In this document: one piece after another, positions 4,032-47,513 of the stretch
Position numbering within the stretch: position 1 is the first letter of the stretch
Layout: each line of letters begins with the position of its first letter
Origin: Candidatus Methanophagaceae archaeon GoMg1
Lineage (GTDB): Archaea; Halobacteriota; Syntropharchaeia; Alkanophagales; Methanospirareceae
Length of the DNA: 56,762 bases
Direction: 5' to 3'
Assembly: GCA_013180605.1 (NCBI GenBank)
Contig: QBUL01000188.1
Location: 1-56,762, forward strand
The notes under the pieces: generated by a model
The model's database searches: none
What the model saw: the letters and a program-made list of their open reading frames with translations, nothing else
What the model was told of the DNA's origin: nothing
Program-made: the position numbers and the translations under genes

Positions 4032-7000
4032 TCAAACAGCCTCTACCCCAAGCCAAACCTCCTTGTCTCCTATTTTCCACTTCTTCTCGTAGATCTGCTC
4101 ACCTTTCACGGAACTGGGTGGCTTCCCCTTCTCAATACCTATCGCAAGCGTCTCCTCAGAGATATAATCCAAGAACGTCTTTATCGCCTCTTTTACCTCT
4201 TCGTCACCCTCGTACAGGATTCTTATCTTCGCCGTATATTCCAGGTCAATGTCCTTCCTCATGCCCTGTACTCTTCTCACGAGGTCTCTGACCAGCCCTT
4301 CCTCTCTTAGTCCTTTGTCCAGGCAAACGTCCAAAAACAACGTTGTTTCTTCATTCACGCCCACCTGTTTATAGTTCTCCGCATCGCTAAACTCGCTCTT
4401 ACGACTCACATCCGCGAATTGCACTTCACGAACGTTCAACTCATCCTGCAATATCGCTGCTAAACCACTCACCTCCTCCATCTTTTCCGTTTCGCACACC
4501 ACTACAACCGCCTTTAACGGTTGTCGTATCTTTATTCCCGCATCTGCTCTCGCTCGTCTGCCCGCTTCGACTAATCGGGCAACTAAATCCATTGAATCCT
4601 CTAATTCCTGTTCTACAAGCGATTCGTCGGGAGAAGGATAATCGCAAAGATGCACACTCTCAAGCGCGTCTTCCGAAATCGTTCTTACGATGTTCTGATA
4701 GATATGTTCAGTAATGAAAGGCACAAAAGGCGCGAGCATTTTGCATAAAGAGACAAGCACCTCATACAGTGTCAAGTATGCACAATCCTTATCAACGTTC
4801 TCCTCGGTGACCCAGAACCGCCGCCTTGACCGCCTTATGTACCAGTTGCTCAGGTCGTCCACCACGAAATCTTCTATTCTCCTCCCCGCAAGATGTATTT
4901 CAAACCGTTCGAGAGCTTCAGTCACGCCTTTTATCGTTGAGTTCAATCTTGACATTATCCATCTGTCTAGCGCGCTTCTTTTATCCACCGGGATCTTCTT
5001 CGCATTCGGATTGAATTTGTCTATGCTTGCGTACGTGATGAAGAAGAAATATGAATTCCAAAGCGTGTTCAATGACTTCTTTTGCCGCTCCGCTATCGCA
5101 GGTTCAGAGAACCGTATGTCTTCCCATGGTGGACCTACGGTGAAGAAATACCATCTCAACGCATCTGCACCTGCACCTTCTTTATTAAATATAGAAGTTA
5201 TGTCAACCACGTTTCCCTTGCTCTTACTCATCTTCACGCCCTTTTCATCCAGTATATGACCCAGTGAGAGCACGTTAAGATATGGCGGGACATCGAAAAT
5301 AGCTGTTGAGACACCGAGCAAAGAATAGAACCAACCACGGGTCTGGTCTATCGCTTCGGTAATAAAAGAAGCGGGGAAATTCTGCTTGAACTTTTCAGTC
5401 TCAAAAGGGTAATGCCACTGAGCAAAAGGAGCAGAGCCCGAATCGTACCAGCAATCTATCACGTCCTTTACCCTTCTCATTTCTCCTCCGCATTTTTCAC
5501 ACCTCAGTAACACGTCATCAATGTATGGCCTGTGCAGGTCAAGGTTTGCGTCTGATTCTTGAGGAAAAGGAAAATTCTTTGCTTTTTCTTTCAGTTCCTC
5601 TATGCTTCCAACACAACACTCCGCCCCGCATGTTTCGCATACCCATATATTCAGTGGCGTGCCCCAGAACCGCTCCCTACTTAGCGCCCAATCCTCAATA
5701 TTCTCCAGGAAGTTCCCGAATCTTCCATATTTTAAGTGCGAGGGATACCAGTTTATTTTTTCGTTGTTTGCAAGCAGGTTATCACGCAGCGATTTCATAC
5801 CGATAAACCACGATTCGCGGGCGTAATACAAAAGAGGCGAACCACAACGCCAGCAGAAGGGATATGAGTGCAAATGCGTGCTCTCTTTGTACAGGATGCC
5901 ACGCTGCTCCAGCATTTCTATTATGCGCTTATCTGCACCCTTTACGAAAACACCTTCCAAATCCGGAAACGGGACCTCACTCGTAAACCGGCCTTTGCTG
6001 TTCACGGGCTGCGAAAAACCAAGTCCTTTCTCCTTGCACACCCCGTAATCATCTTCACCAAATGCAGGTGCAATATGAACGACGCCCGTGCCTTCGTCTA
6101 ACGTGACGAAATCGGCAGTGATTACTCGATGTGATTTCCCCTCTACAGGCACGTCAAAAAGCGGCTCATATTCTTTACCTTCTAGATCTTTACCTCTTAA
6201 TCGCTCAGTTATCTCGTATTCGCCTTCCAGAGCGTCCAACCGTGATTCAGCAAGAATCAAAATCTCTTCGCCGGCCTTTACCTTCACGTAGGTATGTTCA
6301 GGATGAACCGCGAGTGCGATATTGCCGAGTAAAGTCCAGGGAGTTGTAGTCCATGCGAGCATAAAAACGGGCTCTTTTGCTTGGCTCAGCTTGAACTTCA
6401 CGTATATCGAAGGGTCCTCCACCTCCTTATAGCCCTGTGCTACTTCATGACTGCTCAGCGTGGTCTCACACCTAGGGCAGTAGGGCACGACTTTATGCCC
6501 CCGGTAAAGCAAGCCTTTTTTCCATATCTCCTTTAACGACCACCAGACCGATTCTATGTATTCGTTATCAGAGGTTACGTAAGGTGAATCCATATCTATC
6601 CAGAATCCCACTCGTTTCGTGGCATTCACCCATTCTTTTTCATATCGGAAAACCGAGTCCTTGCATTTGCGGTTGAATTTTTCCACCCCATACTCCTCTA
6701 TCTCACGCTTGCTGTTTGTTCCCAGTTCCTTCTCCACTTCTATCTCCACCGGCAGACCATGCGTGTCCCATCCTGCTTTTCTTTCCACATAGAAACCACA
6801 CATCGTTTTATATCGCAGCACGAGGTCTTTCACAACCCTTGTAAGGATATGCCCTGGATGCGGTAGTCCATTCGCAGTTGGTGGACCTTCGACAAAAATG
6901 AACTTCTCACAACCTTCTCTGCGGTCTACACTGTGCTCAAATGTTTTGTTTCTGTCCCACAGCTCCAATATTTCCCCTTCCTGTTGTATGAAATTTGGTC

Positions 7001-7040
7001 TTTGCGCTTCGCTCTTGAAATACGCCATTTCTTCCTTCAC
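4032..7040 (-). CDS. ileS: Isoleucyl-tRNA synthetase (archaeal/eukaryotic type)
   Basis: 1002 aa. PPTANGLPHPGH (HIGH region), KMSKSKGN (KMSKS) and zinc-binding CPRC/CWRC pairs. Confidence 0.95.
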   Translation of the reverse strand: MKEEMAYFKSEAQRPNFIQQEGEILELWDRNKTFEHSVDRREGCEKFIFVEGPPTANGLPHPGHILTRVVKDLVLRYKTMCGFYVERKAGWDTHGLPVEIEVEKELGTNSKREIEEYGVEKFNRKCKDSVFRYEKEWVNATKRVGFWIDMDSPYVTSDNEYIESVWWSLKEIWKKGLLYRGHKVVPYCPRCETTLSSHEVAQGYKEVEDPSIYVKFKLSQAKEPVFMLAWTTTPWTLLGNIALAVHPEHTYVKVKAGEEILILAESRLDALEGEYEITERLRGKDLEGKEYEPLFDVPVEGKSHRVITADFVTLDEGTGVVHIAPAFGEDDYGVCKEKGLGFSQPVNSKGRFTSEVPFPDLEGVFVKGADKRIIEMLEQRGILYKESTHLHSYPFCWRCGSPLLYYARESWFIGMKSLRDNLLANNEKINWYPSHLKYGRFGNFLENIEDWALSRERFWGTPLNIWVCETCGAECCVGSIEELKEKAKNFPFPQESDANLDLHRPYIDDVLLRCEKCGGEMRRVKDVIDCWYDSGSAPFAQWHYPFETEKFKQNFPASFITEAIDQTRGWFYSLLGVSTAIFDVPPYLNVLSLGHILDEKGVKMSKSKGNVVDITSIFNKEGAGADALRWYFFTVGPPWEDIRFSEPAIAERQKKSLNTLWNSYFFFITYASIDKFNPNAKKIPVDKRSALDRWIMSRLNSTIKGVTEALERFEIHLAGRRIEDFVVDDLSNWYIRRSRRRFWVTEENVDKDCAYLTLYEVLVSLCKMLAPFVPFITEHIYQNIVRTISEDALESVHLCDYPSPDESLVEQELEDSMDLVARLVEAGRRARADAGIKIRQPLKAVVVVCETEKMEEVSGLAAILQDELNVREVQFADVSRKSEFSDAENYKQVGVNEETTLFLDVCLDKGLREEGLVRDLVRRVQGMRKDIDLEYTAKIRILYEGDEEVKEAIKTFLDYISEETLAIGIEKGKPPSSVKGEQIYEKKWKIGDKEVWLGVEAV

Positions 7041-7104
7041 CTACTTCTACACTGAACAATATGCTATTTATGTTGGTAGATAAGTTAATTATAAAGTATT
7101 AAAG

Positions 7105-7455
7105 GTGATGAAGATGGAAGTGGAAAGAACAGAATTTTACAGAAGGAGCAAAACCTCACTTTTAGAAATACCCGTAAAGGAACGTATAACCTTCAAAGAT
7201 ATTTGCTGTGAGACGGAGACATTGAAGTTAAAATCACCAATACAGGTGGAAGGAAAGTTATCGAGCGAAGGATGGATTTTTTATTACAAGCCACTGAACA
7301 TACTGGTAAATGCATCCACCTTAGACGAATGTGTAGAAGATTTTCAAGAGGAGTTTTTTGTGCTATACGAAGCATACGCAAAAGAAGCAGACGAGAAATT
7401 AACCGAAGGTGCTAAGAGGTTGAAAAGGATATTGTTAGACATGACGGAGATATAA
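7105..7455 (+). CDS. HicB-like antitoxin candidate
   Basis: 116 aa. EGWIFYYKPLNILVNASTLDECVEDFQEEF resembles the HicB/UPF0150 fold signature. An 8-nt gap separates it from the next ORF. Confidence 0.35.
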   Translation: MMKMEVERTEFYRRSKTSLLEIPVKERITFKDICCETETLKLKSPIQVEGKLSSEGWIFYYKPLNILVNASTLDECVEDFQEEFFVLYEAYAKEADEKLTEGAKRLKRILLDMTEI

Positions 7456-7463
7456 CGCTCAAA

Positions 7464-7751
7464 ATGACGTTTACGATTAAGACCGAGAAAATAAAAGCTG
7501 CTTTAACGAGTAAGGGCTTTGTCAAGGAGGAAAGGTCAAAACACACTTTTTATTTCCTCGTTGTTGATGGCAAGAAAACGGCGATTCACACGAAATTGAG
7601 CCGTGGCAGTAAAGAATATAGTAACAAGTTACTCTCGTTTATGCGTAAACAGTTAGGATTTGGCAAAATGAGAGACCTGAAAGACTTTATCAAATGCCCA
7701 ATTTCCGAGGGCGAGTATGTGAAAATTTTGAACAAAAGAGGTCGGATTTAG
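7464..7751 (+). CDS. HicA-like toxin candidate
   Basis: 95 aa. LTSKGFVKEERSKHTFYFLVVDGKKTAIHTKLSRGSKEYS..LLSFMRKQLG resembles the HicA/YcfA layout (GF...H...h...G.kE....l..i.kql). Confidence 0.35.
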   Translation: MTFTIKTEKIKAALTSKGFVKEERSKHTFYFLVVDGKKTAIHTKLSRGSKEYSNKLLSFMRKQLGFGKMRDLKDFIKCPISEGEYVKILNKRGRI

Positions 7752-7824
7752 TATCGTTTTGTATAAACGAACTTCTCACAACCATCCTTCCGGGCTACGC
7801 TGCGAGCCTTTTGTTACACCCTTT

Positions 7825-8097
7825 TTAGGTTTTCACCGTCTTGAGGATGTTCTTCACTGCTTTCAAACCGTCTTCTGTGATTCTAACCCTGTAAGATGGT
7901 AAACCTGACGCACTTTCTTCTGCAGAGATTTTGCTGATATCAATGAGCCCTATCATGTGGAGGAAGTTACAATTTTTCTTAACCGTGGTGTTATTAGCCC
8001 CAACTGCTTTTGACAGTAGATAGAAAGAATAAACTTTTCCATCGCTTAACTGCTTCAAAACCCTCGTTTTTAACTCATCATTAATGTTCAGTTCCAT
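7825..8097 (-). CDS. Small winged-helix DNA-binding protein
   Basis: 90 aa. The pattern LKQLSDGKVYSFYLLSKAVGANNTTVKKNCNFLHMIGLIDI is typical of wHTH regulators. Confidence 0.5.
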   Translation of the reverse strand: MELNINDELKTRVLKQLSDGKVYSFYLLSKAVGANNTTVKKNCNFLHMIGLIDISKISAEESASGLPSYRVRITEDGLKAVKNILKTVKT

Positions 8098-8185
8098 TTT
8101 GTTTTGGAATTGAACCAGCCTATTTATATACAGTAGCTACAAATCTAAAGTAGGTCTAACGTAAGTATGTTAGTCCTACCGCCTC

Positions 8186-9737
8186 ATGTCGCGAAGAAGT
8201 GTATTTTACCCGAAGGGAAAAGAGCGGAGCATAAAGATTATAAATGCTTTGATTGGCCTGCTATTTTTGGTAACTATAGCAGCGATGCCACCTGCTTTAC
8301 CTTTAGATAGCGATAGTGATGTCGGCAGTGTTATAACTGAAGAATCCTTCTTCAGCGGTAAGTGGATCCCGAAAAATGATACACCAGAGCAAGGTGGTTT
8401 TGGAGAAGCGGTAGTTGGTACTGGAAAGGAAATCTATATCGCCAGATGCTATGACATTAACGATAATCCAGCATTTTGGCGTTACGATTCAAATAAAAAT
8501 AAATGGGATAATATGACTACTTCTGGATTTGAAAAGGGTGCATTCCGGAATGGTGCCGCACTTGCGTGGGATCACGATAATCATATCTATGCTTTGCTTG
8601 GTGGAAGATACAAAGCTGAAGATAATGATTATTGTCTCTTCTACAGATACGCCACATCAAATAACAGTTGGAAGAATTTGACAGATACCTTGACAGGGGA
8701 TGTTCGTCATGGACAGGGTGCTGGCGATGCTATAACATGGGCAAATGGCTATAGTTATGTAATAATGGGTAATAGAATCCGAAAATCCGTTTTTGCTCGT
8801 TATAATTGCCGTGATAAATCATGGGAACTTCTGAGCTTGCCTCGCAGTTGGAAGAATAAAACAGATGGTGGCGCTTCTTTGGTTTGGACTGGAGGGAAAT
8901 ATTTATACGCATTACAAGGGGAGACCAACGAAAATAATGGAAGTAAAAATAATAACTTCTCTCGATATGACATAGACAGCAATACTTGGGAAGATATGGC
9001 TAATATATCAGAGGGCAGTTGTGGTGTTGGTGACGGGGGTTCATTACTCTGGATTGGAAAAGGGATGTATGAATATGCAAACTACATCTTCGCACTCGGG
9101 GGGAGGTTGTGCATACCCCGAAGACCCAGAAGATAATTTTTATGCATATAATATCTCCAATAATTCTTGGAAACCGCTAACACCAATTCCCTGTCCAGTA
9201 GGCAAGTATGTTGGAAACAGGTTGGGTTTTGCCAAAAGACATGTTTACTACTGGCAAGGTACACCAAAAACAGAAAAATACGACCACAATTGTTCTGGGA
9301 AAGCATTTTTTATGTTTGAATGGTTGCCAGCTATATTTGACACGGAAAAGCCAGCTAATCCATACCCAAGCATCTTCGGCATGCATAATGGCACACTCAC
9401 ACCAAACCAAACGATATCTGTGCATAAACTTTACACATATCCCTGCAATGGCACCGGTGGGCATACAGAAAACGTGAAAATTTGGAACTTGACCTGGAAC
9501 GAGACGGCAAATTGGAATGGTTACAGCGGTGATTGGCACAATATCTCTTTTAACGAATCATTCACGCTTGTAAAAGGCGAAACTTACAATTACACCATCA
9601 GAACAGGCTCTTATCCACAAATTCACCACACACCTGCACTGCCAACCGCTAATGGCTGGATAAACTGCTCCGAATTTGTAGATGCGAACGGGCGGGTTTA
9701 TTATGATTGGATACCTGCCATTAAATTATATTTTTAG
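8186..9737 (+). pseudogene. Membrane-anchored Kelch-like beta-propeller protein, frameshifted in a G6 run
   Basis: ORFs 8186-9136 and 9021-9737 overlap. Removing one G from the run at 9098-9103 joins ...YIFALGG to GCAYPEDPEDNFYAYNISNNSWKPL, which continues the Kelch-type repeat. N-terminal TM anchor present. Confidence 0.6.
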
Positions 9738-37528: not shown

Positions 37529-38380
37529 ATGGACGAGAATTACTACCAATATATAAGAGGATTCTTTGGAAAATGGGCATCGTTCTATAATTTTATTGCT
37601 TTGCCTTTAACCGGCATAAGGAATAAGGTTGCAGACATGGTTGACTCAAAAGACAAAATAAAGATTCTGGACGTCTGCACGGGAACCGGGACACAGGCTT
37701 TTGCGTTTGCGAAAAAGGGTTATGAAGTCGTGGGGATTGATTTGTCAGAAGAAATGTTGCAGGTGGCTAAGAAAAAGAGCAAATACGGAAATGTGCGATT
37801 TGTGATGGCAGATGCAACTAAAATGCCATTTGAACCCGTTTATTTCGACTTTGCATGCATTTCTTTTGGACTGCATGAAATGCCACACGAGGTCAGACAC
37901 CAGGTGTTGGACGAAATGAAAAGAGTTAGCGAGAAAATAATCGTTGTTGACTATCACATTCCGAAGGACAGGTTGCATAGATGGCTGCACGTGTCTTTTG
38001 CATCACTTTACGAGAGCAAGTATTACAGAGATTTTGCAAAACGAAATCTTGAGGAATTGTTGCGAGAACACGGTTTTCGTGCGGTCAAAGAAGCTTACGG
38101 GCTGATGGATTTTGTTAAGATATTTGTGTGTGAGCGGAAATCGTTTGAGGGAAAACAAGAAAATAAATCGTTGACACAGATTAACACAGACAAGATGAAA
38201 CGAGCAATGCCGTTAAAAATATGCCAGCCAGCCCAACAAAAAAGAAAAAATCAGTGTAAATCAGTGTCTCAAATAGAAGGCGGTTATACTTTATATACAA
38301 GGATAAAAATGGAAGACATATTATTAATAATATCTCTGATCTTTGTTGGGCAAACTTTCTATGGTAAGGTAATAATATGA
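37529..38380 (+). CDS. Class I SAM-dependent methyltransferase (UbiE/COQ5-like) with a repeat-encoded C-terminal extension
   Basis: ILDVCTGTGTQA, VGIDLSEEML, ISFGLHEM. The fold ends near 38117. The last ~87 codons read through cassette 38161-38300 because no stop is met. Confidence 0.7.
   Translation: MDENYYQYIRGFFGKWASFYNFIALPLTGIRNKVADMVDSKDKIKILDVCTGTGTQAFAFAKKGYEVVGIDLSEEMLQVAKKKSKYGNVRFVMADATKMPFEPVYFDFACISFGLHEMPHEVRHQVLDEMKRVSEKIIVVDYHIPKDRLHRWLHVSFASLYESKYYRDFAKRNLEELLREHGFRAVKEAYGLMDFVKIFVCERKSFEGKQENKSLTQINTDKMKRAMPLKICQPAQQKRKNQCKSVSQIEGGYTLYTRIKMEDILLIISLIFVGQTFYGKVII
38161..38300 (+). promoter_or_regulatory. Intergenic cassette upstream of the dtxR/feoA-feoB operon (lies inside the extended methyltransferase ORF)
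   Basis: aaataaatcgttgacacagattaacacagacaagatg ... aatcagtgtaaatcagtgtctcaaatagaaggcggttatactttatatacaa. Confidence 0.6.
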
Positions 38381-38976
38381 CTGAAGAATCTGACATTCTA
38401 CGAATAGTAGAAGAGGATATACTGAGGATATTGGGTGAAGAGAAAAGTAAAAGAGTCTCATTAGAATCTATAAAATCCGAGATTAACGTCGCTTATTTAT
38501 TCATATCCAACGCAATTAAAGAATTGGAGAGAGGGGGATCAGTACAATCCCAAGGTGACTTTATTGTATTAACAAAGGAAGGGTTTGGCAAGGCAGAAAA
38601 TATTGTTAAAAGACACTTAGTCCTTGAGAATTACTTTAAAATTAAAAGAACGAGAAGCGAAAGAGAAGCGCATAAAATGACCGATATCCTTGAACACTAC
38701 ATCTCTAAAGAAGTTATTGAGCACATAAAAAAGTTGTCTACATTTAAAACGGAAGGCTTTCCGCTGACAAAACTCGCGCTTAACAAAGAAGGCATAATCA
38801 CGGATATTCTGTTCCCTGACTACGGATTATTTGAAAGAATAGTCAGTATGGGCATCGTTCCCAGTGAGAAAATCAAGGTCATGTACAAGATTCCGGATGG
38901 CATGGTTATTTACGTTGGTGGCAAGAAATTCGCGTTGGGTAATGAAATCGCAAAAGGGATAGAGGTGTTGGGATGA
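38377..38976 (+). CDS. DtxR-family metal-dependent regulator with a C-terminal FeoA (SH3-like) domain
   Basis: wHTH N-terminus, KRHLVLENYF (DtxR dimerisation-helix motif), C-terminal FeoA-like GIVPSEKIKV. Confidence 0.65.
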   Translation: MTEESDILRIVEEDILRILGEEKSKRVSLESIKSEINVAYLFISNAIKELERGGSVQSQGDFIVLTKEGFGKAENIVKRHLVLENYFKIKRTRSEREAHKMTDILEHYISKEVIEHIKKLSTFKTEGFPLTKLALNKEGIITDILFPDYGLFERIVSMGIVPSEKIKVMYKIPDGMVIYVGGKKFALGNEIAKGIEVLG

Positions 38977-40865
38977 AACTCAGGATTATCTTAGTTGGGC
39001 AACCCAATGTCGGGAAATCATGCTTACTCAATGCCTTGGTTGGTCCTGAAGTTATCGTATCTAATTATCCTGGAACTACGGTTGAAGTAACCACAGCTGA
39101 AAAGACAGTCGCAGGCGAAGAGATGGTGTTTTTAGATAGCCCAGGAATCTATTCTATTTCTGACAGAAGCGAAGAGGAGAAGGTTACAGAAAAGGCATTA
39201 TTTGAAGAGGAGATAGACGGAGCAATAATAATTGCCGATTCGGTTTCTCTTGAAAGAAGCCTTTATCTGGCATTTCAAGTATTAGAAGCTGAGATTCCCG
39301 TTGTTATAGCTCTTAATTTTGTTGAGAGCGCCGAGAAGAAGGGGATAAGAATAGCTCATAAGAAATTGAGTAAAATACTGGGCGCTCCCGTCATCCCTCT
39401 CAATCCTTTAAAAAAGTGGGGAATAGACGAACTTGTAAACGCACTTTTGGAGATCAAAGAAACTAAGGGCAAGACTTTCACTGTTAGATATGACGATCAC
39501 ATAGAGGACGCAATAATGGAGGTATCCTCGCAGGTGACGAGAACGCAACTGCCAAAGAGATTCGTAGCATTAAGAGTTTTGGAAGAAGACGCGGATTTTT
39601 ACGGATACTTGAGAGATAAACGAACAATCAAAGCGGTTAAAGAAGGTTTAATCGAGCACCCAAAAGTTGCAGAGGACATCGCAATAACAAGATACGGTAC
39701 AGCGGCTTTTATTTCCGGGAAGGTAACCCATTTAGTTCATGTAGAAGAAGCAGCAAGAAGTTTGGATGAGAGGCTCGATGGGGCTCTTCTACACTCGTTA
39801 GGGGGGCCTATTCTCACTATTCTAACATTCGTCACCATTTTTGGTGCGCTGCTGTTCATTGGAAGCTGGATTCAAGACATCCTCACTGGCTTTACAGAAT
39901 ACCTTTTGTCATTGATTCATTTAGGTGTGGGTTTCGGTGGTACAGCGTTAGAAGCGGGTTTAGCAGGGATGATGGCGGGCATTTCCATTGCTTTGCCTTA
40001 CGTCTTTATATTTTACATCCTTTTTACGCTGATTGAAGATGCTGGACTACTCTCAAGATTCGTCGTCAACTTGGAGAGATTTTTAAGATGGTTTAATCTC
40101 CCGGGAAGGGCGATCATACCCTTAGCTTTAGGCTTGGGTTGCACCGTACCCGCTACGAGGAGTACGCGAATTCTGTTTACAAAGAAAGAGAAGTTCTTTA
40201 CAGCATCCTTACTTAGCTGTGTACCCTGCTCTTCTCGAATCGCCATAATAATGGGTGTAGTTGGCTATTTTGGTAGCAAATGGTTGGCTCTTTCCGTTTT
40301 TATTACGCTCTTCGTTTCTTTTTTAGTTTGGGGCTACATAGTGAAGAGGATTACACGAATAGAGAAGAAGCCCGTGCTCTATGAATTGCCGGAATTGCCC
40401 CCTTATAGAATACCTTCAATTGGAAATATCGTTACCAAGAGCTGGATTAGAATGAAGACCTTTGTATATCTCGTTGTACCCCTGTTATTCTTAGGTGGAG
40501 TGGCATACGCGGGATTGGATGCTTTAGGACTCACCAATGTGATCGTGGCACCTCTATCGCCGATTACCTGGTGGTTAGATTTGCCTAATGTAGCCATTAT
40601 CCCGTTGGTATTTGGATTTTTGCAGAAGGATTTAACCGGCTCAATGCTTCTGTTAGTTTTAGGCGGTAAAGTATCCTCTGTTTTAACTCCTCTTCAGATT
40701 TACACCTTTGGTGTTGCCGCTACTATTGGAATCCCGTGCATAATCGCTTTAGGAATGTTTATTAAAGAATTTGGCTTCAATAAAGCGGTGCTTTTAACCG
40801 CAGCATCAATACTGTATGGTTTATTATTCGCGGGTTTAGCTTGGAGGCTAATATCGCTTTTTTGA
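38973..40865 (+). CDS. feoB: Ferrous iron transporter FeoB
   Basis: G-domain GQPNVGKS, DSPG, NFVE, followed by a polytopic membrane domain. 4-nt overlap with the upstream gene. Confidence 0.92.
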   Translation: MKLRIILVGQPNVGKSCLLNALVGPEVIVSNYPGTTVEVTTAEKTVAGEEMVFLDSPGIYSISDRSEEEKVTEKALFEEEIDGAIIIADSVSLERSLYLAFQVLEAEIPVVIALNFVESAEKKGIRIAHKKLSKILGAPVIPLNPLKKWGIDELVNALLEIKETKGKTFTVRYDDHIEDAIMEVSSQVTRTQLPKRFVALRVLEEDADFYGYLRDKRTIKAVKEGLIEHPKVAEDIAITRYGTAAFISGKVTHLVHVEEAARSLDERLDGALLHSLGGPILTILTFVTIFGALLFIGSWIQDILTGFTEYLLSLIHLGVGFGGTALEAGLAGMMAGISIALPYVFIFYILFTLIEDAGLLSRFVVNLERFLRWFNLPGRAIIPLALGLGCTVPATRSTRILFTKKEKFFTASLLSCVPCSSRIAIIMGVVGYFGSKWLALSVFITLFVSFLVWGYIVKRITRIEKKPVLYELPELPPYRIPSIGNIVTKSWIRMKTFVYLVVPLLFLGGVAYAGLDALGLTNVIVAPLSPITWWLDLPNVAIIPLVFGFLQKDLTGSMLLLVLGGKVSSVLTPLQIYTFGVAATIGIPCIIALGMFIKEFGFNKAVLLTAASILYGLLFAGLAWRLISLF

Positions 40866-40871
40866 GGTTAA

Positions 40872-41436
40872 TTGGTAATTCAGTCGTTTACGGTGATGAA
40901 CTCTTTTATCATTGGAATAGTCACGTTCTGGATTATTGATAGAACCCTGCCACACATAAATCCAGAGTTGCTTAAAAAAGAAAAGAGATCCATTGAAAGA
41001 AGCGTTACCATGCTTGTTATCGGCATGGCTTTGCATAACCTCCCAGAAGGATTGGCAATTGGGGTTGGATTTGCTTTAACGCCTGCATTGGGAATTGTGA
41101 TAGCAGTGGGGATTGCAGCACAGGACGTGCCAGAGAATATCGCAACAATCGTTCCTTTATACGGCTTAACGAAAAAGCGAATGAAATCCTTTATTATTTA
41201 TAGTAACGGTGACAATCGGGTTTGAATTACTTGGTTTTATTTTTGGCTACTATTTTTTAAAAGGGATGTCTTTAGATTTATTAGGCGCCTCGCTTGCACT
41301 TGCAGCAGGATTTATGACCTACATTTCCGTAGAAGAACTGATTCCAGCAGCACAAATAAAACAGAATTTAAAAACAGGTCTTACCGGTCTTATTTTGGGA
41401 TTGGTGTGCGTTTTATTAATCTGCCTTTTAGGTTAA
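40872..41436 (+). pseudogene. ZIP-family metal transporter, N-terminally short and frameshifted
   Basis: HNLPEGLAIGVGF and AAQDVPENIA lie in ORF 40872-41225. LALAAGFMTYISVEELIPAA lies in ORF 41209-41436. The frames join if one base is removed in the T/A-rich stretch 41187-41200. Only ~6 of the usual 8 TM segments are present. Confidence 0.65.
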
Positions 41437-41468
41437 ATGATGATAAAAATGATTAATAATAGAAAAAC

Positions 41469-41590
41469 AAAATAAATTATAGACACCGATTAATGCAGAT
41501 TAACACAGATAGATGGCAAAAATCAGCAATGTTAGACTCAAATAAATCCATGTCTTAAATAGAAATTAGGGGAGTTATAGTTTGTATACA
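41469..41590 (+). promoter_or_regulatory. Intergenic cassette (diverged right module) after the ZIP gene
   Basis: aaaataaattatagacaccgattaatgcagattaacacagatagatg ... aataaatccatgtcttaaatagaaattaggggagttatagtttgtataca. Confidence 0.55.
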
Positions 41591-41935
41591 ACGAAAAGAA
41601 AAAACATAAATCCATTCCCTTTGTTAGACCGCTTCCTATCCACCTAATATGTTTAGGTTTATTCTAAATTTTTATTGCTTATTTCAAGCAATGTTTCTTA
41701 TAGTTCACTATATAAAGTGGGGAATTTATTAGAAATGCATGAAAGCAATACGGTCTACCTATGCTAAGACGTATGCTATTGCCAATCCTCAATTTGAATC
41801 ATTAGCATAAAAGAAAACCACAGTTTAAAAAATCCGTGATGCACGGGGATTTGCCCGCACGCCTTCGGCGGCGCTAAAGGGTACTGTAGCAAGTGCATCA
41901 ATAAGTCCCATGAAGTGCTAAAAAGGGATAGAAAA

Positions 41936-42937
41936 ATGGAAAAACAAAAAGCCTTCAGAATTTATGGAAAAGTGCGAGAACTGGAAAGTATGATTGGAGT
42001 CCCAGGCTTGAAAATTGAAGCTTTGGATAAAGACCTTATATTTGACGACCGCTTAGGTTCTGTTACTACGGACATTGATGGCAACTTCGAGATCAGATAT
42101 GAGAAAGAAGATTTTCAGGAACTTTTCTTTGATCAACGACCGGACATCTACCTTAGAATTAAAAACCCGGATGGAAAGTTAGTTTCTACAACCGAAGACA
42201 AGGTCAGATACGGGGCCAATAGAACAGAAGAATTTGTTATAAATCTCCCTAAAAAGTTACTAAAGGGAGGCGAAAGTATGAAAGAAAAAATAGAAGATAG
42301 TAGGGAACTTAGGGGTAGAATCCTAAGAGATAAGGAACTGCTAAGACATCTTAGCGAGAAGATTGCAGAGATACTTAATGGAAAGGTGGAGATTGGAGAA
42401 GATGAGGCATACACGTTTGTGCCATTCGTCTATGAAAAACCCGTATTTGCGCCAGAGATATTCGCAGGGCCAGTCCGGCGGGTAAGGAAAACGGAGCCCC
42501 CACCGTGGTGGTGGGAAGGGCTACCGGCACCTGAAATTCTACAGCACTTGGAAAAACACAGGGTCACGGAAAAACCAACTCCAGAGCTTGCTATGTCACT
42601 CGGAGAGCAGATAATCAGAAATAAAAAGCTTCTCGGGGAACTCAGTGAGGGTGTATCAAGTGTTCTAAAAGAGCATGGTGTTGCTATTAGCGAGGATGTC
42701 ACGTATGTATTTTCGCCGATAGTCTACAAAAAGCCAACCTTTGCACACGAGATGTTTATGGATGTAAAGCCATCAATGTTTGCGTCCATGGTAGCTGCAG
42801 ACCCAACTCCACAGCCCGCAATAGCATCAGCTACTGCACTCCGAGCTTCAGAATCAGCTTCAATGCGTATCGTCACTCCCATAGATGGGATACCCGCACC
42901 GGAACTTCTGTATGCTTTGGATAAGCTCAGATTTTAG
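41936..42937 (+). CDS. Repeat-module protein A: beta-sandwich N-domain plus two ~100-aa modules (candidate radical SAM substrate)
   Basis: N-domain FRIYGKV...GLKIEALDKD...LGSVTTDIDGNFEI...RPDIYLRIKNPDG is carboxypeptidase-regulatory/transthyretin-like. Then two modules share ELR.RI...K.LL..LSE.I...L......EDE.Y.FVP.VYKKP.FA.E.F ... G.P.P.LL..L.K.R. No Cys. Internal GGGAGG plus ATG at 42278. Confidence 0.6.
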   Translation: MEKQKAFRIYGKVRELESMIGVPGLKIEALDKDLIFDDRLGSVTTDIDGNFEIRYEKEDFQELFFDQRPDIYLRIKNPDGKLVSTTEDKVRYGANRTEEFVINLPKKLLKGGESMKEKIEDSRELRGRILRDKELLRHLSEKIAEILNGKVEIGEDEAYTFVPFVYEKPVFAPEIFAGPVRRVRKTEPPPWWWEGLPAPEILQHLEKHRVTEKPTPELAMSLGEQIIRNKKLLGELSEGVSSVLKEHGVAISEDVTYVFSPIVYKKPTFAHEMFMDVKPSMFASMVAADPTPQPAIASATALRASESASMRIVTPIDGIPAPELLYALDKLRF

Positions 42938-42963
42938 TAAATGGATAAATAGGAGTAAATAAT

Positions 42964-43641
42964 ATGGAAGAGAAGATAGAGCGAAGTGAAGAGCTTCGGG
43001 ATAGAATCATCAAGGATGAAAAACTGCTGAGAGACCTCAGTGAAACAATATCGGGGATACTGAAAGGAAATGTAAAACTTGAAGAAGATGAGACCTATGC
43101 ATTTGTCCCGCTCGTATACAAAAAACCAATCTTTGCGCCAGAGATATTTACAAGTGTGGTCTCGATAGAGAAGATACCTTTTGGTGGGGCGGGACCATTG
43201 GACCCTTTGTTTGCAGTCGTGTTGGAAAAATACAGAGTGAGGGATGACGAGCCTCTACCTGTCGGAAAGTCACTCAGAGAACAGATACTCAGTAACAAGG
43301 CACTGCTAAATGAGCTCAGTGCGGGCATATCAAAAGTTCTCATGAAACATGGTGTAGCATTTGAAAACGATGAAACATACGCATTCATGCCGGTCGTGTT
43401 CAAAAAACCAGTCTTCACATCAGAACCCGTTCCATGGATAACCTCAGGAATCCGTGCATTCTCAGATGCATCTCCTGTTATGCTCGGTCCACAACCAGAA
43501 CCTCCGGACAGCCCTACACGTATAGCGCGATTTTCGACGATTGCACTGATTGAAAAGTATGGGATATTACCCCAACCTTTTCCCGGTCCTCTGGATCCAT
43601 GGCTATTGAACGTGTTAGAGAAATCCCGAATACAAAAGTAA
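42964..43641 (+). CDS. Repeat-module protein B: two modules, paralog of the C-terminal two thirds of protein A
   Basis: MEEKIERSEELRDRIIKDEKLLRDLSETISGILKGNVKLEEDETYAFVPLVYKKPIFAPEIF, and a second module SLREQILSNKALLNELSAGISKVLMKHGVAFENDETYAFMPVVFKKPVFTSE. No Cys. Confidence 0.6.
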   Translation: MEEKIERSEELRDRIIKDEKLLRDLSETISGILKGNVKLEEDETYAFVPLVYKKPIFAPEIFTSVVSIEKIPFGGAGPLDPLFAVVLEKYRVRDDEPLPVGKSLREQILSNKALLNELSAGISKVLMKHGVAFENDETYAFMPVVFKKPVFTSEPVPWITSGIRAFSDASPVMLGPQPEPPDSPTRIARFSTIALIEKYGILPQPFPGPLDPWLLNVLEKSRIQK

Positions 43642-43687
43642 TGATGAGATAAAGCAATCTCATCCCTTTTTTCATTTTTTTATCTAC

Positions 43688-45115
43688 GTGAAAATGAGTT
43701 CGGAAAAGCCGAAGGTATCGGAACAGCTATTTGTTGAGGCGCGGGATTTAAAGGATGAAAAGGTTTATTTCATTCTTGACCCAAATAAACCCTCTTGGGC
43801 TTTTATTAATAAAGATAGTCTGGAAATATTGAACTTGTGCAACGGTAAAAACGCAATTCATGATATTTCAGGAATAATTGCAGATAAATATGCGATAGAC
43901 CAGAAAGAAGCGTTAAACGGCGTTGAATCCTTTTTAAATAGCATGATTAATATTCAAGTGATACACTACAACGAGACGGAGGAAGTAGATGCCCACGAGA
44001 CAACAGCTTCTGTCAATTCGTTCAGAAGTCTGGCAATGGAAATAACAAAAAAATGCAATTTGAGATGTGTTCATTGCTATCTACCCGCTGGAGAGAGAGC
44101 GGAAGAAGAACTGACTACCGAAGAGATAAAAGAACTGATAAAATCAGCCAAAGAACTCGGCGCGAGGTCAGTAAGCATCGGTGGCGGCGAGCCTCTGATG
44201 AGACCTGATTATATTGAGATAATAGAATATGCACTTTCTTTGGATTTGTTAGTTGCATTAGGTACCAATGGGACGCTAATAGATGAAAAAATTGCGGAAA
44301 CATTATCAAAATTACCAATTAAAATTCAAATAAGCCTTGATGGCGTCAGAAAAGAGACACATGACCGTATTAGAGGAAACGGTAGTTTCGATTCGGCGGT
44401 CAGAGGGCTGGATAACCTTATCGAAAAAGGTATGGGAAAAGACATCGTTATTGCTTTTACTCCGATGAGTTTAAATGCTGATGACATTCCGGAACTAATT
44501 GATTTCGCACTTGAAAAGGGGATACAAGTGATTCAGTTTCCTCCTCTTTCATCGTCTGGGCGAGCAAAAGCGAGATGGGACGAATTGAGGCTTTCTGATG
44601 ATAAAAGACTATGGTTCTGGGATTTTATTTCGAAGAGATCAAAAGAACTGAAAGGGAAATTAGATTTACTCGCAGAATGTTTCTCGCTGGATATAAACAA
44701 CCCAGGAAATCCTTACAGATGCTCAATAGGTAGTCAGTTGCGGATTGCCCCGGATGGAGATGTCTATCCCTGCCAGTGTTTTCATTTTGGTTCTGAATAT
44801 TGTATTGGAAACGTAAAAAAACAACGTTTGGAAGAGATTGTGAATAGTAAAAAGCTGAGGGAGATAATAAAAACTTGTTCCGCAAGACCTTCAAAGATAG
44901 ATCAGTGCAGAGAATGCAACTGGAGGAATTTCTGCGGTGCCGGGTGTATGGGAAATGCCTTTGAAGTCAATGGAACAATTTGGAGCCCTGATTCTTGCAA
45001 TGTTAGAAAGCAGTGGATTGAAAAATTATTTCACGCAAAATTTAATGAGATTTATCGCTTGGAAGATAAAGCCATAAGCGCAGGTGATGCATTAAAAAAG
45101 TATGAAAATGGCTAA
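43688..45115 (+). CDS. Radical SAM/SPASM-domain maturase with an N-terminal PqqD-like (RRE) domain
   Basis: N-terminal YFILDPNKPSWAFINKDSLEILNLCNGKNAIHDISGIIADKY is PqqD-like. CNLRCVHCY is the CX3CX2C motif. GGGEPL present. SPASM cysteines CSIGS...PDGDVYPCQC and CRECNWRNFCGAGCMG. Confidence 0.85.
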   Translation: MKMSSEKPKVSEQLFVEARDLKDEKVYFILDPNKPSWAFINKDSLEILNLCNGKNAIHDISGIIADKYAIDQKEALNGVESFLNSMINIQVIHYNETEEVDAHETTASVNSFRSLAMEITKKCNLRCVHCYLPAGERAEEELTTEEIKELIKSAKELGARSVSIGGGEPLMRPDYIEIIEYALSLDLLVALGTNGTLIDEKIAETLSKLPIKIQISLDGVRKETHDRIRGNGSFDSAVRGLDNLIEKGMGKDIVIAFTPMSLNADDIPELIDFALEKGIQVIQFPPLSSSGRAKARWDELRLSDDKRLWFWDFISKRSKELKGKLDLLAECFSLDINNPGNPYRCSIGSQLRIAPDGDVYPCQCFHFGSEYCIGNVKKQRLEEIVNSKKLREIIKTCSARPSKIDQCRECNWRNFCGAGCMGNAFEVNGTIWSPDSCNVRKQWIEKLFHAKFNEIYRLEDKAISAGDALKKYENG

Positions 45116-47513
45116 AAAACTCGATAGCGGAATAGCATTGGTGTTTGTTGTGCTGATAATGGGATTGCTTGATGGCAGTCTAAGCGCGGCAGCAAATGAC
45201 GAGGCGGTGATAGTAAACGAAGAGGATCGCTCTAACATCAATTTCCCCTCGGATTATTATCCAAGTGACACGACCCCACCAACCATAGCAATAACTTGTT
45301 CTCCAGAAAATCCCACCGCTGATCAGCAGATTACTTTTAGCGCAACAGCATCGGATAGAAGTGGAATTAACAGAATCGAGATATTGGTGAATGCAAGAAA
45401 GGTAGAAGAATGCTTTGACTCAGGTTCATGTATCTATATTGGTGGACCTTATCCCGACTATGCAGGAACATCTGTGAGTTATGGTGCTAATGCCTACGAT
45501 AAGGCAGATAACAGAGCGTGGACTGGCTACAAGAGTGTGCACATATCCGAGCCAAGGGATATAATCCCTCCTACCGTAATAGACAATACACCAGTCGGTA
45601 CAGATGTCCCGGTTACAACGGAAATAACCATTACATTTAGTGAGTCTATGAACAAGGAATCGGCAGAAGACGCATTCTCCATTTATCCTGAAGTCACTGG
45701 CAGATTTGATTGGAATGAGAACATGATGATCTTCAAGCCACATTCTGATCTTGATCACGAAACAGAATACATTGTAAATCTCAAAGGTTCTGATCTTAAT
45801 CAATTCACAGGACAGCTTACACATCTCGAAGGAGGGAACTGGGGTGCAATGGATTTAGCAGAAAACATCATGGTAAGATCATACAACTGGGAATTTAAAA
45901 CCAACTCTCCTGAACGCATACCACCGACCGCTATAATATCTGCACCCTCAACGGAAATAAATGTGGGTGAAGGTATGATTTTCAGTGCGGAAGCGTCCAG
46001 CGACCGGGATGGTAAAATCATTTCTTACGATTGGGACTTTGGTGATAGTAATACCGGTGCAGGAATAAGCGTAGAACACACATATCCTCACAGCGGGCAT
46101 TATACAGTCACACTCACGGTAACGGATAACGATAAGTTATCTGACACCGACACAGTGGATATAAGCGTTACTACACCAGCTCTTTCTGTTTCAATCTCTA
46201 CAAATCCTATGCCCTCTGGTGAATCAGACGAGATAATAGTTCAAGTCTTCTCAGATGGCAATCCCGCAGCTGGTGCTAATGTGTATCTCTCATCCACACT
46301 CGGCAGTCTCTACCCAACTGAAGGGGGGACCGATGAAGATGGTGTGTTTGTTTCGACTTATACAGCACCACTCGTGTCTACCACTCAACGGTATACTATT
46401 TCTGCTATGGCGGAAAAAGAGGGATACGAAGAAGGAATAAATACCGTTTCGGATTCGATTTTTATTGAAACAATACCAGCTCTTTCTGTTTCAATCTCTA
46501 CAAATCCTATGCCCTCTGGTGAATCAGACGAGATAATAGTTCAGGTCTTCTCAGATGGCAATCCAGTAGCTGGTGCTAATGTGTATCTCTCATCCACACT
46601 CGGCAGTCTCTACCCAACTGAAGGGGGGACTGATGAAAGTGGTGAATTTGTTTCGACTTATACAGCACCACTCGTGTCTACCACTCAACGGTATACTATT
46701 TCTGCCACGGTGGAAAAAGAGGGATACATAGAGGGAAAAGATTCTGTCCCGAATTCGATTTTTGTAGAGCAGCCGCCAATTACTACGCCAGCACCTGTGG
46801 TTACACCAATTCCAACGCCTGAAGAAACTCCCACACCTGCGCCAACACCACCTCCTTCACAGCCAATCGTTCCGATAGCGATAGCTGCGATAGCAGCAGT
46901 TACGGTTTTAATATATATGTTCAAAGTGAAGAAGCCGCCAGAGCCTCAACCAGGGAAAGAGAAGAAGAAGTCTGAACCAGATGAAGAAGAAAAGCGGCAA
47001 TATGGTTCAGTATCCGCAAGTTCTGATCCTGATGGTGCTGTGGTTTTATTAGATGGAGCATATCATGGTATATCGGCAATGAGAATGGATAACATCCCAA
47101 TAGGCCCTCACGTTGTTGTATTTGCAAAGTTCGGCTATTTCAAATGCGAAAAAAAGGCAATAGTTAACGCAAATCAAACAACCCATGTTCATTGCGATTT
47201 AACGGAAATACCGGAGATAAAACTGAAACTCTCAGCAGAACCTACCGAAATCCCTGCCGATGGGAAATCGAAATCCATGATAACGATAAGGATAGAAGAC
47301 AAGAATGAAATACCGATTCCTGTTCCAGAAGATATAATGGTAGAATTAGTAACAAATATTGGAAAGATAGAGAGTCCGGTCAGAATACCTGCTGGCAGAG
47401 CTTCAGTTACTGCGACTTTGACATCCTTCGCAGTCCAAGGAACTGCCACGGTAGAAGCAACGGCCGAATTCTTGAAAGGCAGCACAACCGTTGAATTTTC
47501 TCAATCTACATAG
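45102..47513 (+). CDS. Multi-domain surface protein (Ig-like, PKD, two Big-like repeats, Pro/Thr linker, TM helix, PEGA-like and Ig-like C-terminal domains)
   Basis: Signal peptide. The PKD motif is ISYDWDFGDSNTG...HTY..SGHYTVTLTVTDN. Linker is TPAPVVTPIPTPEETPTPAPTPPP. TM helix is IVPIAIAAIAAVTVLIYMF. The PEGA-like motif is SDPDGAVVLLDG...IPIGPHVVVFAKFGY. The start overlaps the radical SAM gene by 14 nt. Confidence 0.75.
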   Translation: MKMAKKLDSGIALVFVVLIMGLLDGSLSAAANDEAVIVNEEDRSNINFPSDYYPSDTTPPTIAITCSPENPTADQQITFSATASDRSGINRIEILVNARKVEECFDSGSCIYIGGPYPDYAGTSVSYGANAYDKADNRAWTGYKSVHISEPRDIIPPTVIDNTPVGTDVPVTTEITITFSESMNKESAEDAFSIYPEVTGRFDWNENMMIFKPHSDLDHETEYIVNLKGSDLNQFTGQLTHLEGGNWGAMDLAENIMVRSYNWEFKTNSPERIPPTAIISAPSTEINVGEGMIFSAEASSDRDGKIISYDWDFGDSNTGAGISVEHTYPHSGHYTVTLTVTDNDKLSDTDTVDISVTTPALSVSISTNPMPSGESDEIIVQVFSDGNPAAGANVYLSSTLGSLYPTEGGTDEDGVFVSTYTAPLVSTTQRYTISAMAEKEGYEEGINTVSDSIFIETIPALSVSISTNPMPSGESDEIIVQVFSDGNPVAGANVYLSSTLGSLYPTEGGTDESGEFVSTYTAPLVSTTQRYTISATVEKEGYIEGKDSVPNSIFVEQPPITTPAPVVTPIPTPEETPTPAPTPPPSQPIVPIAIAAIAAVTVLIYMFKVKKPPEPQPGKEKKKSEPDEEEKRQYGSVSASSDPDGAVVLLDGAYHGISAMRMDNIPIGPHVVVFAKFGYFKCEKKAIVNANQTTHVHCDLTEIPEIKLKLSAEPTEIPADGKSKSMITIRIEDKNEIPIPVPEDIMVELVTNIGKIESPVRIPAGRASVTATLTSFAVQGTATVEATAEFLKGSTTVEFSQST
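46176..46775 (+). repeat. Exact-period 300-bp tandem duplication inside the surface-protein gene
   Basis: 46176-46475 and 46476-46775 both begin ccagctctttctgtttcaatctctacaaatcctatgccc. They differ at only a handful of positions over the first ~240 nt. Confidence 0.9.

Follow-up and report, generated by a model that had tools for sequence, protein, structure and literature searches.

What does a radical S-adenosylmethionine (SAM) enzyme modify when its only constant companion is a protein that no family model describes? This question is raised by four co-directional genes (window open reading frame (ORF) listing) on contig QBUL01000188.1 of Candidatus Methanophagaceae archaeon GoMg1, an ANME-1 (anaerobic methanotroph group 1) methane-oxidising archaeon; the whole stretch analysed, 56,762 nucleotides, is called the window. 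Genes A and B code for paralogous proteins made of modules of ~100 aa, the third gene codes for a radical SAM/SPASM enzyme with a fused PqqD-type recognition element (RRE) for peptides that are made on the ribosome and modified after translation (RiPPs), and the fourth codes for an 803-aa membrane protein. New peptide chemistry comes mainly from RRE-fused radical SAM/SPASM enzymes, many radical SAM/SPASM clusters are uncharacterised, and to our knowledge nearly all known RRE-fused members act on short peptides. Our results are best explained if the window region represents a widespread, hitherto unannotated two-gene system in a form elaborated in this lineage; the pair formed by module protein and enzyme is probably an undescribed protein-modification system.

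The linkage of the two genes carries this explanation. Comparison loci (labelled L001 to L029) were sought in two ways, via the enzyme and via the module protein, and in all 23 distinct loci examined, from about nine bacterial and archaeal lineages, a gene for a two-module protein adjoins an ortholog of the window enzyme (42-93% pairwise identity among the pairs compared). The hosts belong to ANME-1, Altiarchaeales, Desulfobulbaceae, Chloroflexota, Bacteroidales, Sphingobacteriia, Eubacteriales, Campylobacterales and Aminicenantes. The module-protein route, which drew on 14 GTDB genomes from a genome scan (bacterial-type alignment), on L022 and L023 and on ANME-1 contigs, gave 18 loci, all with the enzyme (L001, L002, L008, L010-L018, L020-L023, L028 and L029); the enzyme route, which used homologs of at least 47% identity, gave four, all with the module protein (L005, L006, L007 and L026). 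Relatives of the enzyme with 45-63% identity are annotated from Altiarchaeales, Chloroflexota, Proteobacteria, Desulfobulbus, Nitrospirae and Sphingobacteriia. When the neighbouring ORFs were clustered all against all, the module protein and the enzyme were the only families common across lineages. The sequence-only reading of this region had left room for the module family to occur elsewhere apart from this enzyme clade; the two went together in 23 of the 23 loci. Its description of the system as archaeal did not hold, most carrier lineages being bacterial.

The two genes are often separated by 14-55 nt. A small precursor ORF hidden between them was considered and rejected, since the gaps are too short and hold no conserved small ORF. 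The pairwise identity matrix of the one protein correlates with that of the other (r 0.69, Mantel p 2e-4), and the module protein diverges faster than its partner: between types its identity is 24-35%, against 44-63% for the enzyme. Substrates usually evolve faster than their enzymes.

The enzyme itself has all the parts that the sequence-only reading had given it, namely a PqqD-like domain, the CX3CX2C motif and a full SPASM cysteine set, as found by Pfam and by motif reading. The PqqD match covers residues 28-88 (26.3 bits, cutoff 23.4, Pfam), and the Radical_SAM and SPASM domains match at 1.5e-32 and 4.4e-14. The SPASM cysteines follow the pattern Cx9-15Gx4C ... Cx2Cx5Cx3C ... C and are C345...G-x4-C362, C407/410/416/420 and C437, the last conserved Cys; in total there are nine conserved auxiliary cysteines, enough for full ligation of both auxiliary clusters. 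In 10 orthologs the cysteines of the radical SAM and SPASM clusters are invariant and the RRE region is strongly conserved. Translation is likelier to start at ATG 43694 than at GTG 43688, judging from the orthologs, which begin MSS(E/R)KPK.

A simpler version of the pair was found in L024, where an 80-aa protein resembling a single module (4680-4922) lies upstream of a 37%-identical radical SAM enzyme (5001-6398). This protein has the helix, a VVWAPTLVDKP box and NGIPHPRYLEAAHRF, and it scores 16.7 bits against the module hidden Markov model (HMM), the best of 2000 shuffles reaching 7.3. This pairing suggests a module as the clade's ancestral recognition unit, with the two-module protein as the result of a duplication. 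A metagenome scan gave no further close relatives of the 80-aa protein, and no member of the module family was found near a 35%-identical archaeal radical SAM enzyme (L025). Neither were relatives of the system found on plasmids, phages or viral contigs, the lone viral-contig match being a chance one to a terminase small subunit. A search of the literature on ANME radical SAM/SPASM enzymes and RiPPs, and on RREs with protein substrates, returned nothing on the module family.

Modules, fold and conserved residues

Proteins A and B contain four modules in all and not a single Cys, as the sequence-only reading had described. The two-module part of A (residues 115-333) matches B with an E-value of 2e-50, and the four modules, each of ~100 aa, match one another at E 1e-11 to 4e-29, so each protein is an internal duplication. 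The modules share a helix, a YxFxPxV[YF]xKPxF box and a terminal G..P..L..L[ED]KxR segment. The longer form of the box that had been drawn up from the sequence, [DE][DE]xxYxFxPxV[YF][KE]KPxF[AT]xE, occurs in four of the four modules, while the conserved box that had been placed at the module end is approximate only (GLPAPEIL in A1, GPLDPLFA in B1). No hydrophobic segment was found by hydropathy in A or B, and the two proteins end in ...DKLRF and ...SRIQK, respectively.

The module has no named family, as had been supposed. When A, B and eight of their distant relatives were scanned against Pfam, NCBIfam and PADLOC, no family came up, apart from a TTR-52 match below the cutoff on the N-domain of A (Pfam, E 0.004); no NHLP or Nif11 HMM (Pfam, NCBIfam) matches A or B, and the homologs of the module protein are all named 'hypothetical protein' in their source records. 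The AlphaFold2 (AF2) model of B, made from a 105-sequence alignment, has a predicted template modelling score (pTM) of 0.67. Residues 1-55 and 101-150 are modelled with a predicted local distance difference test (pLDDT) of 80-96, and in each of these confident stretches a pair of helices leads into a β-strand segment with the box in it; the module ends in a helix, and loops 60-70 and 152-191 are disordered. A Foldseek search of both AF2 models of B against PDB gave nothing at E<0.4, with TM-scores of at most 0.3, and sequence searches of PDB with the family profile and with the N-domain of A gave nothing significant. The module protein thus appears, from these models, to be a soluble folded protein with an unseen fold and variable loops, and not a typical unstructured precursor. 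In the sequence-only reading the helices acted as leaders and the boxes as cores; this division is not evident, because AF2 places helices and box together in one confident fold.

An exhaustive profile search brought up two-module proteins with lengths of 215-290 aa, spread over many clusters at 50% identity; the whole family ranges from 203 to ~400 aa, the upper end being reached by forms with the N-domain. Two subfamilies can be told apart. The bacterial/Altiarchaeales type has GMSYVFEPRVF in module 1 and EGCVFTPxVFETPxYAQK in module 2, a CLPxCG motif, a C-terminal WWWIGIPAPEMLRALDxxR and 1-5 Cys, one of which stands at the Tyr position of the box (EGCVFTP against ETYAFMP). The ANME type and its nearest relatives (L022, L023 and the Sphingobacteriia locus L026) are Cys-poor or Cys-free and have VY[KR][KR]P. 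Invariance across 105 diverse members is limited to P49, G77 and F141, and F47, V51, P81, R91, P149, G208, P212, R222 and the Leu/Ile/Ser positions of the helices are conserved in at least 90%; the family-wide box is reduced to aromatic-x-F-x-P-x-V-aromatic plus Pro. Conservation across these members and subtypes makes both the Cys-free state and the Lys-Lys pair subfamily traits. Two claims made from the window therefore had to be narrowed: the absence of Cys applies only to the ANME-type subfamily, and the Lys-Lys (YKKP) core is conserved in the ANME type only. Separately, a Methanophagales metagenome-assembled genome (L013, 720-2924) carries a pair of the bacterial/Altiarchaeales type, with Cys and WWWIGIPAPE, and not the ANME-type cassette, its enzyme being 61% identical to that of the window; ANME-1 therefore harbours both subfamilies.

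Proposed substrate and product of the enzyme

We propose that the two-module proteins are dedicated substrates of the radical SAM enzyme, and we regard this relationship between the enzyme and the adjacent module protein as likely. It is favoured by the strict linkage, the conserved RRE, the correlated identity matrices, the faster divergence of the module protein and its modular unit. The core of the system would consist of the radical SAM/SPASM enzyme with its fused PqqD-type RRE and of an adjacent soluble cytoplasmic protein of 210-400 aa with two tandem modules of ~100 aa, each made of a helical hairpin with LxxxIxxxxxLLxxLS, a β box reading aromatic-x-F-x-P-x-V-aromatic-x-x-P and a helix with G-x-x-x-P-x-x-L-x-x-L-x-x-x-R. 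The RRE would dock on the module, the 5'-deoxyadenosyl radical would take a hydrogen atom from a residue in or beside the conserved box, and the two auxiliary Fe-S clusters would finish an oxidative modification, once per module. Candidate products are a C-C or C-O crosslink, an epimerisation or a desaturation. The modification of the ANME type would be independent of Cys: judging from its sequences, Cys-dependent thioether formation is excluded there, and it is unlikely as the common reaction of the family because Cys is not conserved. By analogy, the nine auxiliary cysteines and the MftC-like nearest family models are compatible with Cys-independent oxidative C-C or C-O chemistry or with epimerisation.

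As to the fate of the product, it would most likely stay a modified protein and not become a small exported peptide. A protein-sized product is favoured by the folded cores in the AF2 models, the fused transthyretin (TTR)-like domain of some members, the absence of a hydrophobic segment and the absence of a conserved exporter. The full statement, a substrate relationship together with a protein-sized product, we hold to be finely balanced.

Several observations weigh against this proposal. The enzymes nearest to that of the window are those of Altiarchaeales and L013 (62-63%), and the substrates nearest to B are those of L022, L023 and L026 (42-46%); because these nearest relatives differ, the phylogenies of enzyme and substrate are not fully congruent. 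The module protein is conserved throughout and predicted to be folded, and it seems to have no unstructured core with a conserved pair of reactive residues; the family-wide invariant positions comprise only F, P, V, G and R. From the sequences, adjacency alone would not tell a substrate from an obligate partner that is not a substrate. Finally, peptidases of five unrelated families are encoded upstream of the pair in four independent contexts, which fits the proteolytic release of a peptide better.

Two other explanations take up these points. In one, the module protein is an obligate partner such as a scaffold, a chaperone, a regulator or an immunity-like protein, and the real substrate lies elsewhere: in ANME-1 perhaps the coupled surface protein, in other lineages a secreted neighbour or a small molecule. 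A folded protein of unseen fold, conserved along its whole length and lacking a family-wide reactive residue pair, could play such a part, and secreted or surface proteins are frequent among the neighbours (the Ig-domain protein of ANME-1, the fn3 protein of L014, the C25 and astacin peptidases), while the best NCBIfam scores of the enzyme are those of MftC and of the small-molecule enzymes NirJ and AhbC/D. However, a fused and conserved RRE implies a peptide or protein ligand, and the module protein is the sole conserved candidate; the surface protein and the other neighbours are missing from most lineages, and a gene ratio of 1:1 to 1:2 with tight or overlapping spacing is typical of RiPP enzyme-substrate pairs. 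We consider an obligate non-substrate partner unlikely.

The other explanation is a classical multi-core RiPP system, in which two-module precursors modified by the enzyme are cut by proteases to give one peptide per module, the hairpins serving as internal leaders. Its appeal comes from the repeated units, from the 80-aa single-module relative of L024, which stands beside a sister enzyme and has a Frankia_peptide (PF14407) gene and an M35/hemopexin peptidase gene downstream, and from the same-strand upstream peptidases in L002, L006/L008, L007 and L017. By a rough estimate these peptidase contexts exceed chance (about one expected among 13), yet they are not universal. The earlier statement that the block has no protease or exporter stood for the window, where neither was found, and failed elsewhere, where peptidase genes recur directly upstream; clustering of the neighbouring ORFs revealed no protease or exporter conserved across the loci, and most loci have none. 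Against peptide release there are also the boxes, which lie inside a confidently predicted fold, and the folded TTR-like domain at the N-terminus. Moreover, the variable disordered regions lie between conserved segments, the opposite of a conserved excised core with flanking cleavage sites. A canonical RiPP precursor is short, typically under 110 aa, and has an unstructured core. A canonical RiPP cluster was rejected for the window, where A has 333 aa and B 225 aa, the cores are predicted to be folded and no peptidase or exporter is encoded. A multi-core system of this kind seems to us improbable.

If the proposal that the module proteins are modified as proteins is true, the logic of RRE-containing radical SAM/SPASM enzymes extends to protein substrates in organisms from Bacteroidales to ANME-1, and probably a new Cys-independent modification comes with it. 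The system has only two genes, some of its hosts are easier to handle than ANME-1, and one assembly is of the isolate style (Thermodesulfobacteriota bacterium B35), which makes it directly testable.

The ANME-1 cassette and its surroundings

In ANME-1 the proposed system would have two additions to its core: a pair of paralogous substrates, A (with or without the TTR-like N-domain) and B, and a translationally coupled membrane protein, with Ig-like domains probably on both sides of the membrane, as a lineage-specific partner. The positions of all features are given in Table 1. The nearest homologs of the window proteins (B up to 96%, enzyme up to 91% identity) come from Methanophagales and Ca. 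Methanophagaceae (ANME-1 metagenomes). The ANME-1 loci L001, L002, L028 and L029 share the order A-type gene, B-type gene, enzyme gene and gene for the Ig-domain membrane protein, with different flanking genes.

Table 1. Positions of the features discussed, in the window and in the comparison loci
Feature	Sequence	Position	Strand	Remark
Upstream intergenic region	window	41437-41935	+	499 bp, no ORF; sequence read directly
TATA-like CTATATAAAG	window	41708-41717	+	putative promoter element, read from the sequence alone
GC-rich hairpin-prone stretch	window	~41833-41895	+	inside upstream intergenic region
Gene A	window	41936-42937	+	333 aa, 0 Cys
N-domain of A (residues 1-114), transthyretin/CarboxypepD_reg-like β-sandwich	window	41936-42277	+	weak Pfam TTR-52
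Internal GGGAGG and ATG	window	42265-42270 and 42278-42280	+	junction N-domain/module A1
Two-module part of A (residues 115-333)	window	42278-42937	+	43% identity to B
Module A1	window	box 42398-42457; terminal helix motif 42518-42562	+	motif coordinates
Module A2	window	box 42692-42751; terminal motif 42887-42931	+	motif coordinates
Gene B, two-module protein	window	42964-43641	+	225 aa, 0 Cys
Module B1	window	box 43084-43143; terminal motif 43192-43236	+	motif coordinates
Module B2	window	box 43366-43425; terminal motif 43585-43629	+	motif coordinates
RRE (PqqD)-radical SAM-SPASM enzyme	window	43688-45115	+	475 aa from GTG 43688
RRE (PqqD)	window	43769-43951	+	Pfam PqqD
CX3CX2C, CNLRCVHC, residues 123-130	window	44054-44077	+	motif reading
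SPASM CX2CX5CX3C, residues 407-420	window	44906-44947	+	motif reading
803-aa membrane protein	window	45102-47513	+	domain matches (Pfam), hydropathy
S8+VWA peptidase gene	L002	4812-7931	same as pair	directly upstream, ANME-1
C11/C14/C25 peptidase gene	L006	340-4967	same as pair	directly upstream
C11/C14/C25 peptidase gene	L008	2807-5933	same as pair	directly upstream
S9 peptidase gene	L007	2803-4716	same as pair	directly upstream
Astacin+PPC peptidase gene	L017	4500-5846	same as pair	directly upstream

The membrane protein begins with a signal or anchor segment, followed by Big_7/Big_5/PKD/Big_1 domains, a Pro/Thr-rich linker, a transmembrane segment and PEGA and Invasin_D3-like domains; hydropathy shows two hydrophobic stretches, one of them at the N-terminus and the other, the transmembrane segment, at about residues 587-607. 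Its gene overlaps the end of the enzyme gene by 14 nt (45102-45115), an overlap already seen in the sequence-only reading and repeated in the ANME-1 contigs L028 and L029. That reading had made the coupled surface protein a part of the system, which is true of the ANME-1 cassettes (L001, L002, L028, L029), the only ones with this protein downstream of the enzyme, and fails for all other lineages examined: it is absent from all bacterial and Altiarchaeales loci and from L022 and L023. The PEGA and Invasin_D3-like Ig domains (residues ~587-803 region) are predicted from the sequence to be cytoplasmic, which is unusual for such domains, because the second hydrophobic segment precedes them, as does a Lys-rich stretch, KVKKPPEPQPGKEKKK. 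A cytoplasmic Ig tail of this kind could be in contact with the cytoplasmic A and B proteins. In the Sphingobacteriia locus L026, a gene for an 835-aa protein (6467-8974), with no Pfam match on record, overlaps the stop of the enzyme gene by 4 nt; this protein is unrelated to the ANME-1 surface protein, yet its position is reminiscent of ANME-1, where a large protein encoded downstream is translationally coupled.

A wider view, which we put forward tentatively and hold to be rather doubtful as a whole, is that the pair defines an unrecognised class, in bacteria and archaea, in which a ~25-kDa radical SAM substrate of unseen fold becomes a radical-modified protein with self-contained modules and, in ANME-1, a link to the surface. 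Each of the two modules would hold an element recognised by the RRE and a modified residue, the product would be crosslinked or epimerised, and the modified proteins of ANME-1 would work with the membrane-spanning Ig-domain protein, tying a cytoplasmic modification to the cell surface. For ANME-1, whose cell-envelope and syntrophy functions are poorly understood, it matters that a conserved four-gene cassette ends in a cell-surface protein.

The two forms of gene A bear on its origin. In the window, ATG 42278 corresponds to residue 115 of A and is the exact start of the homology to B. The suggestion that A arose by fusion of a domain to a B-type gene gained from the comparison: since A-type genes with the TTR-like N-domain (window, L028) and without it (L001, L002, L029) both occur in ANME-1, the fusion reading of the internal ribosome-binding-like sequence and ATG is supported. 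The A-type genes of L001 and L029 (226 aa) start at a Met equivalent to residue 115 of the window protein. Directly upstream of both lies an ORF, resembling one of an insertion sequence, for a Cys-rich zinc-finger/helix-turn-helix protein (L001 6908-7279, L029 3008-3397); its presence where the TTR-like N-domain would stand suggests domain loss through a mobile-element event. The N-domain is also fused to two-module proteins in five lineages (Altiarchaeales, Campylobacterales, L022, L023 and L028). In addition, it is found at the extreme N-terminus of many unrelated proteins (an S8 peptidase is one of these, and lengths reach 3402 aa), and most of the 1368 profile hits match the N-domain part of the profile only. 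By its occurrence in these sequences the domain behaves like a general adaptor or targeting domain. An adaptor role common to the neighbouring genes was rejected, only A-type proteins carrying a TTR-like domain there.

Upstream of gene A, the ~500 bp of non-coding DNA with a TATA-like box that had been noted earlier turned out as 499 bp free of ORFs with the box in place. The stretch 41815-41940, just before gene A, folds with a minimum free energy of -36.7 kcal/mol and a z-score of only -1.95, and an Rfam search of the 5' intergenic region gave no family at E<=0.8. This 499-bp region is not kept in the other ANME-1 cassettes, whose upstream gaps measure 14-70 nt. Further upstream, a ZIP-type metal transporter gene (40872-41436) is apparently split into overlapping ORFs in different frames (40872-41225 and 41209-41436), which could be due to a frameshift, a pseudogene or a sequencing error, and it is preceded by FeoA/FeoB-like genes at 38377-40865.

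Comparison with known radical SAM systems

Could the enzyme nevertheless belong to a characterised system, with A and B as unrelated neighbours? A general similarity to such systems exists. Among solved structures the closest is CteB (5wgg), whose alignment, at residues 29-446, runs over the full length and includes the RRE, and the best NCBIfam score is that of MftC, 184.2 bits with a cutoff of 265, followed by NirJ2, StsB, AhbC and WgkB. Yet the enzyme stays far below the curated cutoff of every named NCBIfam model (StsB 153 against 625, PapB 120.5 against 340, SCIFF maturase 104.7 against 425, PqqE 103 against 381, AlbA 100 against 850, anaerobic sulfatase-maturating enzyme (anSME) 93.9 against 349). 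The grouping with anSME or another known clade that the sequence-only reading had allowed for was thus not found. From its sequence the enzyme is placed in the RRE-radical SAM/SPASM class, outside all the named families of that class. The absence of Cys, of a (C/S)xPxR motif and of a C-terminal Val-Tyr in A and B, the absence of a GYW motif in the enzyme and the strict linkage of A/B-type genes to this clade speak in the same direction. An anSME, MftC, PqqE, sactipeptide or ranthipeptide, or cyclopropyl synthase identity, with A and B as bystanders, is very improbable and effectively refuted.

The closest likeness in architecture is to CteB, AlbA, SkfB and the SCIFF maturase, which have the same order of an N-terminal PqqD-like RRE, a CX3CX2C core and a SPASM domain with all its cysteines; in CteB-type systems the partner gene lies immediately upstream, as here. 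The substrates differ. Those of sactipeptide and ranthipeptide enzymes are 40-60 aa long, contain Cys and receive thioether links, whereas the module proteins have 225-400 aa in two modules, are predicted to be folded and in ANME-1 are Cys-free. A sactipeptide or ranthipeptide system was rejected on the zero Cys donors in A and B and on the SCIFF, AlbA, PapB and StsB scores.

MftC and PqqE are radical SAM/SPASM enzymes that work with a PqqD-type domain binding a ribosomal precursor, and they perform Cys-independent oxidative C-C chemistry on Tyr, Val and Glu. By analogy, chemistry of this type is plausible for a Cys-free box rich in aromatic residues and Val. In both of them a protein of its own supplies the RRE, and the precursor has 20-30 aa with a C-terminal target, while here the RRE is fused. 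No MftD/E/F or PqqB/C genes were found nearby (window ORFs, neighbouring-ORF clustering), and a mycofactocin system was rejected on its score, the fused RRE and the C-termini of A and B, which lack Val-Tyr.

Several modification units per precursor and long structured N-terminal regions are known from the TvgA/TigB repeat peptides and from NHLP/Nif11 proteusin-type precursors (PMC10878394 for TvgB/TigE). The TvgA/TigB repeats are motifs of 4-6 aa in peptides of ~60 aa; the unit described here has ~100 aa and its own predicted folded element. In the cyclopropyl synthases TvgB and TigE the Tyr of a GYW motif ligates auxiliary cluster I (PMC10878394); this type was rejected for the 475-aa window enzyme, in which the motif is absent. 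The SPASM-linked peptides of conflict systems (PMC7159879) are of the FxSxx type and represent a different system.

The outcome proposed here, a protein-sized substrate that stays a functional protein, has its counterparts in anSME and in QhpD, the crosslinker of the QhpC subunit. However, anSME has no RRE, and QhpD makes Cys-Asp/Glu thioethers, which are impossible in A and B. Neither sulfatase nor amine dehydrogenase genes are linked to the pair (neighbouring-ORF clustering; window ORFs for sulfatase), and anSME was rejected on its score, the lack of a linked sulfatase and the absence of (C/S)xPxR from A, B and the surface protein. A place among the known systems is thus effectively excluded, and what sets the present pair apart from all these systems is an unannotated, protein-sized partner with tandem modules, a wide spread among anaerobes and, in ANME-1, the extension by a surface protein.

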